64,000 bases of DNA, taken from a virus. The translations under genes and the position numbers were made by a program. The notes under the pieces were generated by a model. The model was not told where the DNA came from and ran no database searches. It saw nothing but the letters and a program-made list of their open reading frames with translations. Shown piece by piece: positions 27,451 through 28,548 of the stretch. How positions within the stretch are numbered: the first letter of the stretch is position 1; each line of letters opens with the position of its first letter. The stretch is from the IMG/VR virus record IMGVR_UViG_3300032893_000002, positions 110,668-174,667 of that record; one strand, written 5' to 3'.

Positions 27451-28548
27451 TTAAATAGGCTTTAACATTACTTTTCTAATCGTATCCAAATATTTTCTTA
27501 GTTTAGGTTGCGACTCGCAAAATGCTTTTGGATCGTATAAAAATGGAATCAGCCGTTCTTCCATGAATGTCTTTGGTGCAGTAGCAATATAGTGATACGA
27601 AGCCAAAATATCTTTTACACCTAATACATACAATAAAGGTAAGTTAAAATACCATGCACTGGGACTAATTGCAAAAGTCATTTTAACAGGCCCCTCGCGG
27701 ACAAAGCCTTGTAAACCGCCTTTGTATTCGGAAGGTAAGAGCGACTTTTGTTTCTTAAATGTAGTTATCGGTCTTGTCGCTTCTTGCAAACGAATTAAAT
27801 CACTGGCTACAAGATAGCTTCGGATCATTGCCATTTCACTTGCAGATACGTTAATACTCATTACCTTTTCTGGATCTAATCCAAGCTCCCTAATTTCTGC
27901 TTCCCATGCTTCTTTCTTTGGAGCGGGATCATCCGTAGATATGTAACTAGAATCACGGATAGAAGTAGAACGAAGTTGATAAGATTTACCTTGCAACTTG
28001 ACACGGGCGGCTCTGCCGCCTTGAATCATCCACGTAGCAGAGTCAGCAGAGTAGAAAGGGTAGGTGAGCATAGTATATAACTCAGTATTGCCGAATGAGT
28101 GAGTTTTAACAATTGCCCGCCCCGCTGAATCAGTAATATAAGTCCACACAAGGTCATGCCACACCTTACCTTCAACTGGAGAGACTAATGATGTTGCTGA
28201 TAGTCCTATATATTGTGCGCTTTCAAGCATTTTGTCAAGCCATTTTAAATTTTCACGTGCGTGGTAAACTGGCATTACATCAATACCACGTTCGCGCATA
28301 TAGAAGAAATTCTTCATTCCTGCTTCAGCTGCTGTTTCTGGATCTCCTGGATTAATAACATCAAGATTAATTGCTTTTGTTATTTCTTTGTCATGTTTCT
28401 TACAAAAGTCAATATACTTATCTATGTTAATTTCTTTTCCACGCGTGAACGCGCTATACGCGCCGCTATCTAACAACAACGATACTACTGGATCTCCCAT
28501 ATTATTCCGATATAATAACTGGATCTTCTTCTTTCCGTGATAATTCAT
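27451..28548 (-). CDS. tRNA-guanine-transglycosylase-family protein, DpdA-like (candidate 7-deazaguanine DNA transglycosylase)
   Basis: LLLDSGAYSAF parallels the TGT LTDSGGFQVFSL substrate-pocket motif; YSADSATW is a possible counterpart of the catalytic-Asp segment. No TGT zinc motif; 365 aa. Confidence 0.5.
   Translation of the reverse strand: MNYHGKKKIQLLYRNNMGDPVVSLLLDSGAYSAFTRGKEINIDKYIDFCKKHDKEITKAINLDVINPGDPETAAEAGMKNFFYMRERGIDVMPVYHARENLKWLDKMLESAQYIGLSATSLVSPVEGKVWHDLVWTYITDSAGRAIVKTHSFGNTELYTMLTYPFYSADSATWMIQGGRAARVKLQGKSYQLRSTSIRDSSYISTDDPAPKKEAWEAEIRELGLDPEKVMSINVSASEMAMIRSYLVASDLIRLQEATRPITTFKKQKSLLPSEYKGGLQGFVREGPVKMTFAISPSAWYFNLPLLYVLGVKDILASYHYIATAPKTFMEERLIPFLYDPKAFCESQPKLRKYLDTIRKVMLKPI

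Follow-up and report, generated by a model that had tools for sequence, protein, structure and literature searches.

We asked whether a virus gene that curated protein-family models pass over could encode an enzyme that places a 7-deazaguanine base in DNA. The gene lies in a 64,000-nucleotide stretch of the IMG/VR virus record IMGVR_UViG_3300032893_000002 (positions 110,668 to 174,667 of that record), which we call the window and from whose first letter positions are counted; like all genes of the window, it is on the minus strand. Modification of DNA with 7-deazaguanines is a widespread counter-defence of phages, and DpdA is its signature enzyme. An earlier note, made from the letters of the DNA, had taken a 365-amino acid (aa) open reading frame (ORF) with the motif LLLDSGAYSAF for a DpdA-like protein of the tRNA-guanine transglycosylase (TGT) family and a candidate partner of Que genes. 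The ORF is present at 27451..28548, with the motif at residues 24-34. The gene, however, is most likely 27451..28500 (349 aa) rather than the longest ORF to 28548, because ∼90 full-length metagenome homologs of 345-355 aa start at the equivalent of Met17 and because the TAA stop (28502-28504) of an upstream ORF, 28502..28828, lies one base ahead of the ATG-GGA-GAT at 28500. Residues are numbered below in the 349-aa form; adding 16 gives the numbers of the 365-aa ORF (D11 = D27, D153 = D169).

We find it very probable that the product of the gene is an enzyme of the DpdA type, which exchanges guanine in phage DNA for a 7-deazaguanine base. Taken as a whole, the observations are best explained by a circularly permuted DpdA-family DNA transglycosylase whose product is most likely dPreQ1 (2′-deoxy-preQ1), a combined reading in which we have good confidence. 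The function itself is ordinary for phages; what is new is an unannotated, uncultured clade with a barrel that we interpret as circularly permuted.

Membership of the DpdA family and the catalytic residues

No family of Pfam or NCBIfam matched the 349-aa protein (E ≤ 0.01-0.1), and the TGT models (PF01702 and NCBIfam tgt) were likewise without a match. In PHROGs, residues 3-252 of the 365-aa ORF fell into phrog_887, 'queuine tRNA-ribosyltransferase' (E 1.8e-41), and tblastn retrieved 188 phage records at ∼30% identity that are annotated as DpdA or queuine tRNA-ribosyltransferase, none of which covers ≥80% of the query protein. When a family alignment of 60 homologs (26-97% identity) was compared by hhalign with the DpdA of phage 9g, the probability was 99.9% (E 1e-31), and the comparison of this family profile with that of an alignment of canonical DpdA1 proteins gave E 7e-65 over 251 columns. 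The 9g DpdA puts preQ0 into DNA in E. coli (PMC6884629). We assign the protein to the DpdA family because of this strong homology to validated phage DpdA1, backed by the fold, and the DpdA-like reading of the earlier note is thereby supported at the level of family homology. With the phage DpdA1 enzymes (9g, CAjan; Queuovirinae) the protein shares the core and an Ins8-like region at ∼30% identity over ∼205-250 columns, including the motifs DSGAFSA, P-x-FHA-x-E, H-x-FG-x-T (with the signature His196) and YPWYS-x-DS; like them, it has no Zn site and is encoded beside FolE/Que genes, near polymerase and clamp genes. As a side observation on phage 9g itself (L001, 3007-3960), most 9g-type homologs are 306 aa long and start ∼11-13 residues downstream of the annotated start, and the annotated 9g DpdA may be slightly too long.

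Which residues could carry out the exchange? Invariant among the 60 homologs are D11-S12-G13-A14, Y29, D47, N64, P77, H80, E83 and G99, and further along the chain G127, H134, G137, P148 and D153. In the hhalign alignment D11 corresponds to D72 of 9g DpdA, H80 to H141, H134 to H196 and D153 to D215. The histidine H196 of 9g is the one reported to set DpdA apart from DpdA2 (PMC6884629), and this DpdA1 signature is present here as the invariant H134. The DSG motif, which the earlier note had matched to the TGT substrate pocket, does place its Asp (D11) opposite D89 of E. coli TGT; it was the only part of the family profile that hhalign aligned, however, and on its own the match is at chance level (E 0.056, not significant). 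Two invariant Asp thus stand where a catalytic pair was looked for, and the protein did not fall into an unrelated TIM-barrel family.

The AlphaFold2 model computed on the family alignment (pLDDT 94.6, pTM 0.91) is a (β/α)8 TIM barrel most similar to TGT/DpdA. D11, D47, H80 and D153 lie at the ends of strands 1, 2, 3 and 6, respectively, with G99-S101 on strand 4 and H134 on strand 5. In a Foldseek search of viral models (BFVD), all 26 matches at E ≤ 1e-3 were viral DpdA-like proteins, including that of Vibrio phage nt-1, and none of them spans the whole model (TMq ≤ 0.54).

We compared this arrangement with bacterial DpdA (bDpdA; S. Montevideo, PDB 7ui4), in which the general acid/base D95 (D102 in Zm TGT) lies at the end of β3 and the nucleophile D256 (D280 in Zm TGT) at the end of β8, D130 and H181 read the base, and Ala at both catalytic Asp abolished guanine exchange (PMC10164549). 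The catalytic residues follow in the same order at the ends of consecutive strands and with similar spacing. The Asp pair is five strands apart in both proteins (D11 on strand 1 and D153 on strand 6; D95 on β3 and D256 on β8), a correspondence taken from strand order and not from direct superposition, and the invariant D47 and H80, which end strands 2 and 3 with a matching spacing, may by this order correspond to D130 and H181. After D153 the model has a helix (156-163) that ends the core, a hairpin (166-175) and helices (195-241), which is also the published order of Ins8 in bDpdA (helix, hairpin, helical domain) after its nucleophile strand. The two proteins differ in that they are only 13% identical, with no detectable sequence similarity, and in that bDpdA alone has the canonical strand order, the CXCX2CX22H Zn site, Ins1-3 and a requirement for the ATPase DpdB. 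In bDpdA the Zn site pins Ins8 to α8 (PMC10164549). The window protein has two Cys, neither invariant in the family, and no His cluster, and thus no such Zn site.

On this basis the gene divides into three parts. The catalytic core (residues 1-165; 28006..28500) comprises six β/α units equivalent to bDpdA β3-β8, as judged by conservation, secondary-structure order and the 9g alignment, and contains D11 (codon 28468-28470), D47, H80, H134 and D153 (codon 28042-28044). It is followed by the Ins8-like insertion (residues 166-265; 27706..28005), which in the model consists of the β-hairpin, a helical subdomain and a linker, with no Zn site. The last part, assigned from the model and a profile match, is a C-terminal β-α-β-α module (residues 266-349, KMTFAISPSA...GVKDILASYHY; 27454..27705).

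By homology to 9g DpdA, bDpdA and tRNA TGT, the enzyme would flip guanine out of double-stranded phage DNA; D11 would protonate the leaving base, D153 would attack C1′, giving an intermediate in which enzyme and DNA are covalently joined, and a free 7-deazaguanine base would then attack and be installed. The modification would shield the phage DNA from restriction. We infer this chemistry, and DNA rather than RNA as the substrate, from the relatives of the protein and from its context. The founding members of the superfamily act on tRNA, and a preference for DNA over RNA cannot be read from a sequence, so that the enzyme might instead be a tRNA-guanine transglycosylase acting on host or phage tRNA. 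We give this very little credence: the enzymes of 9g and CAjan, to which the protein is most closely related among those characterised, modify DNA, and it has no match to the Pfam TGT family (PF01702). Moreover, the window encodes no GUN-anticodon tRNA, its one tRNA being Thr(UGU), and the gene sits in a replication module, between FolE/QueC and clamp-like/polymerase genes, as in the DNA-modifying Queuovirinae. The protein also differs from tRNA TGT in that it has no Zn subdomain, in its proposed permuted strand order and in its presumed substrate, DNA. A TIM-barrel enzyme with some other activity, or an inactive relic, deserves next to no weight, since the catalytic residues are invariant in 60 homologs that diverge to 26% identity, the homology to DpdA1 is highly significant and the synteny with Que genes is kept.

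The other known DpdA groups were considered and set aside. DpdA2 of the Vibrio phages nt-1 and VH7D is distantly alike in fold (nt-1 R9TGF0, Foldseek E 7e-4). It lacks the signature His196 and is not retrieved by PSI-BLAST with 9g DpdA (PMC6884629); membership of this group is ruled out by H134 and by the strong alignment with 9g DpdA. For DpdA3 (phiST, Campylobacter phages), hhalign with CGPG_00065 of phiST gave a probability of 0.2% (E 0.34), and for DpdA4 (archaeal viruses) there was no match to DUF6610 (PF20314). A bDpdA-type system with the ParB-like ATPase DpdB was rejected as well, as a Pfam search of ∼70 ORFs of the window found no ParB-like or dpd genes.

Order of the barrel strands

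The earlier note had described the protein as lacking the N-terminal ∼70 aa and the zinc subdomain of tRNA TGTs, as DpdA proteins do. It is correct that there is no Zn site and that nothing precedes the DSG strand, which is the first element of the protein. The comparison with DpdA proteins does not hold, as bDpdA retains both β1-β2 and the Zn site and phage DpdA1 retains its N-terminal module. This module (∼45-60 aa in canonical DpdA1, with β1-β2) was present in seven of seven DpdA1 proteins from cultured phages (9g, CAjan, PSASB_03, Erebus, RHph_N17, ALK and phiSM). Nor does the N-terminus appear to be lost: an equivalent module is found at the C-terminus of the 349-aa protein, which is ∼40 aa longer overall than canonical DpdA1. 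We therefore asked whether the barrel is circularly permuted.

We interpret the model as a permuted TIM barrel in which the chain would begin at the β3 equivalent, with the equivalents of β1-α1-β2-α2 at the C-terminus, after the Ins8-like insertion. The model has eight β/α units, of which the last two (strand 273-277, helix 280-292, strand 297-301, then helices) follow the Ins8-like region. In a control AlphaFold2 model of a 9g-type DpdA (pLDDT 84.5), units at strands 11-15 and 46-49 stand ahead of the DSG strand (69-72) and the C-terminus is all-helical, which is the canonical order. The profile of residues 262-349 matched the profile of 120 N-termini of 9g-type proteins with E 2.9e-4 and a score of 25.2; of 30 controls with shuffled columns, none scored above 15.0. 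The match pairs GVKDILASYHYIAT with NIPNILESWHYVGK, and under relaxed settings the alignment was co-linear across both β/α units. Two further N-termini were matched by the module hidden Markov model (HMM), that of P0118 and, over residues 4-28, that of phiSM DpdA1. When the full-length profiles were compared, the wrap-around match (C- to N-terminal) was second best, and the best of the alternatives.

A different explanation is that the C-terminal segment is an unrelated add-on domain and the protein an N-terminally truncated DpdA rather than a permutant. The sequence match of the module is short and modestly significant, and that the C-terminal strands close the barrel is inferred from the model; both points speak for the add-on domain. 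On the other side, the model has exactly eight β/α units, and small complete barrels could be aligned with it over nearly their full length (176 of 190 residues for TenI), for which six units would not suffice. The co-linear match extends to three independent N-terminal modules (9g-type, P0118 and phiSM), wrap-around is the best alternative in the full-length comparison, the pLDDT of the C-terminal part is 90-98, and core-only genes elsewhere are trailed by an overlapping ORF that encodes the module. We thus consider an add-on domain unlikely and prefer the permuted barrel. A search of the searchable literature found no report of a permuted DpdA. Vibrio phage ALK was examined as a possible cultured example and rejected, as its DpdA is of the canonical 9g type and its long tblastn coverage was a spurious extension.

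The core-only genes just mentioned are 'short' DpdA genes of ∼270 aa, with DSG at residues 3-12, that end after the Ins8-like helices. At two loci of uncultured phages (L007 and L008) such a gene lies beside QueF, QueC and FolE and is overlapped by an ORF that gene finders missed. In L008 this ORF (4831-5175, 115 aa) overlaps the core stop by ATGA and matches the module HMM with E 1.1e-11; in L007 (4819-4998, 60 aa) the overlap is TGATG and the match has E 7e-5. The genomic order, core and then the β1-β2-like module, is the same as in the window, but the module is a separate ORF there and fused here. These small ORFs imply, from their position and profile matches, putative two-gene split DpdA enzymes. 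In tblastn against phage genomes the small-ORF module had no match. The β1-β2 module thus occurs in three ways, fused N-terminally, as a separate downstream gene, and fused C-terminally. Such a natural series illustrates a way in which gene fission and re-fusion can permute a TIM barrel. It also means that a cloned 'short' DpdA gene may be active only together with a mini-ORF that was not called downstream of it, and that the annotated gene cloned alone might give an inactive protein. The published inactivity of phiSM DpdA1 is not a case of this kind; a missing split module was ruled out there, as phiSM has a compact N-terminal module.

How widespread is the permuted form? At E ≤ 1e-3 the family profile matched 7,210 clusters, of which 1,548 reached E ≤ 1e-30. 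We classed the architecture of the 140 cluster representatives nearest to the profile; in 89 the module follows the core, 36 carry a long tail in which it was not detected and 12 are core-only. The permuted form is therefore common in metagenomes, with at least 89 clusters at 50% identity, and no example of it was found among cultured phages. The clade is invisible to Pfam and NCBIfam, nameless in the sources and has no cultured representative, and surveys built on curated models will count too few of the phages that modify their DNA with deazaguanines, in particular large uncultured ones.

The deazaguanine pathway and the predicted base

The neighbours named in the earlier note are present. 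FolE (GTP cyclohydrolase I, the first step toward preQ0) is encoded at 29012..29650 (PF01227, E 1.4e-63; TIGR00063, 188.4 bits against an equivalog cutoff of 181.6), QueC (synthase of preQ0, 7-cyano-7-deazaguanine) at 33575..34297 (PF06508, E 2.5e-61; TIGR00364, 193 against an equivalog cutoff of 150.3 bits), and at 26585..27202 an HNH protein that has a hydrophobic segment in its N-terminal part. The partnership with Que genes proposed there stands as far as FolE and QueC lie near the gene; the ORF was not connected there with a third gene of the window, QueF, which changes the predicted base to preQ1. QueF, the NADPH-dependent reductase of preQ0 to preQ1, is encoded at 12799..13209 in its unimodular form (PF14489, E 3.4e-30; TIGR03139, 131.6 against an equivalog cutoff of 86.9 bits). 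It matches QueF of B. subtilis (4f8b) with E 7e-35 and keeps both the catalytic Cys (TSLCP) and ESKSLKLY, the QueF motif that binds NADPH; the match to the archaeosine synthase QueF-L (5jyx) is weak (E 5e-5). Judged by its sequence, the protein is a genuine QueF.

Phage QueF is linked with dPreQ1 or its derivatives in DNA, and DpdAs can insert preQ1 (PMC10516641). Given this link and the QueF of the window, deoxy-preQ1 is therefore the most likely product. By analogy, then, the phage DNA most likely carries dPreQ1, with dPreQ0 as the alternative, and preQ1 is probably the end point of this phage's pathway. The phage FolE would make the first intermediate from GTP, the QueD and QueE activities would be supplied by the host or by parts of the genome not covered here, the phage QueC would make preQ0 and the phage QueF would reduce it to preQ1.

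The same enzyme chemistry could also insert preQ0 or 7-carboxy-7-deazaguanine (CDG), or a mixture, with QueF serving, for example, the queuosine of host tRNA. The DpdA1 enzymes assayed so far all insert preQ0, and the DpdA2 of VH7D takes preQ1, preQ0 and CDG with different efficiencies (PMC10516641). In the window QueF lies ∼14 kb from DpdA, outside the QueC-FolE-DpdA module, and in two relatives (L002 and L004) no QueF was seen within 10 kb of DpdA. Against this, the QueF-encoding phages that have been analysed carry dPreQ1 or derivatives (phiSM), the DpdA2 of VH7D, which is associated with QueF, prefers preQ1 (PMC10516641), and the QueF of the window retains its catalytic Cys and NADPH motif. 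A base other than preQ1 is thus a possibility to be taken seriously, if a doubtful one, and preQ1 remains our preferred prediction.

Neither QueD nor QueE was found in the window by motif scans, by tblastn with proteins of 9g, phiST, PSASB_03, phiSM and L002, or by Pfam searches of ∼70 ORFs. As the window probably makes up less than half of the genome, a genome-wide absence of the two cannot be concluded. DpdM and DpdN were also not found in the window, and beyond its right edge (L017) there were only small ORFs of unknown function. In the relative L002, a QueE-like ORF (19917-20705) sits where the window has QueF; it is 24% identical to 9g QueE (E 9e-7), carries a long insertion rich in Cys and is without a hit in precomputed Pfam results. 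In the relative L004, a 297-aa ORF between QueC and FolE (7033-7926) weakly matches a CxxCxxCC/DpdM-like protein (47 aa, E 2.5e-4). Methylation of dPreQ1 may thus occur in some members of the lineage; the window has no counterpart of this ORF.

Several points weigh against the combined reading of a permuted DpdA with dPreQ1 as its product. No sequence method (phmmer, profile searches of PDB sequences, hhalign) ties the family directly to TGT or bDpdA, and the link to them therefore rests on fold and on transitive homology via 9g DpdA. With Foldseek against the PDB nothing was found at E ≤ 1e-3, TGT (6rkt) ranking fourth with E 8e-3. The equation of D47 and H80 with D130 and H181 of bDpdA is drawn from strand order and spacing in a model, not from superposition. 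The module match is confined to 16-21 confident columns, with E from 3e-4 to 0.025, and there is no permuted-type DpdA among the assayed enzymes. For some DpdAs, expression in E. coli gave no activity (PMC10516641). Finally, with no QueD or QueE in the window, the supply of preQ0 is unexplained by the window data.

Gene neighbourhood and other genes of the window

We asked how much of this locus is conserved. The window has a GC content of ∼0.38-0.43, and megablast of 24 kb of it against 50,697 phage records gave no match; no polymerase of a cultured phage is more than 30% identical to the UDG-PolA fusion protein. The gene has relatives on contigs of 157-176 kb. The window is therefore part of a large genome of an uncultured phage. 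The QueC-FolE-DpdA module is kept in two relatives on contigs of 164-176 kb, and the order common to both is DUF2156-like, QueC, an unknown protein of 167-218 aa, FolE, DpdA, clamp-like and UDG-PolA. The HNH gene, a 79-aa ORF, a vault-like gene and a GIY-YIG gene are not conserved at the locus in these relatives. The HNH nuclease was accordingly rejected as a functional partner of DpdA, since it is not conserved beside it.

The DUF2156/MprF C-terminal-like protein (35646-36596; PF09924, LPG_synthase_C, E 8.7e-15) is encoded in the gene block that holds QueC, ∼1.3 kb upstream of it, and is kept next to QueC in both relatives. It belongs to no PHROG, and its 22 homologs are all in this phage lineage. 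Members of the DUF2156/MprF-C-like family use aminoacyl-tRNA as donor. By analogy with the known formyl- and methyl-dPreQ1, the protein could aminoacylate the primary amine of dPreQ1 in DNA to give aminoacyl-7-aminomethyl-7-deazaguanine, which would be an undescribed hypermodification with the permuted DpdA as the entry enzyme; we regard this as a speculative long shot.

The remaining observations concern other genes of the window, all of them likewise on the minus strand. At least five homing-endonuclease-like genes are found within the 64 kb, three of the GIY-YIG type (7256-8041, 29595-30359 and 46488-46928) and two of the HNH type (10117-10701 and 26585-27202). Between the QueC block and FolE, and adjoining a GIY-YIG homing endonuclease, an 881-aa protein (30414-33059) has the shoulder and repeat domains of the major vault protein (PF11978, E 6e-21; weaker matches to Vault_3 and Vault_2), which is unusual for a phage. 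A stretch at 428-4106 encodes an ABC-transporter ATPase (PF00005, E 6e-25), an ORF with weak likeness to a permease and a 605-aa protein that carries an OmpA domain at the C-terminus; it is slightly richer in GC (0.42-0.46) and is either odd phage cargo or a window end of different origin. At 14440-15419, a protein with a NADAR domain (PF08719, E 4e-15) is next to, or overlaps with, one with the 'cyclic-phosphate processing receiver' domain cREC_REC (PF20274, E 2e-13), a pair that may relate to ADP-ribose or RNA-end metabolism. A 156-aa ORF at 39184-39654 carries the C-terminal domain of ribosomal protein L7/L12 (PF00542, E 1.6e-11). Lastly, at 48160-50606 a gene like those for nicotinamide/nicotinate phosphoribosyltransferase (PF04095, E 1.5e-27) lies next to a weakly PRPP-synthetase-like gene, which suggests NAD+ salvage of the kind that phages use against NAD-depleting defences.

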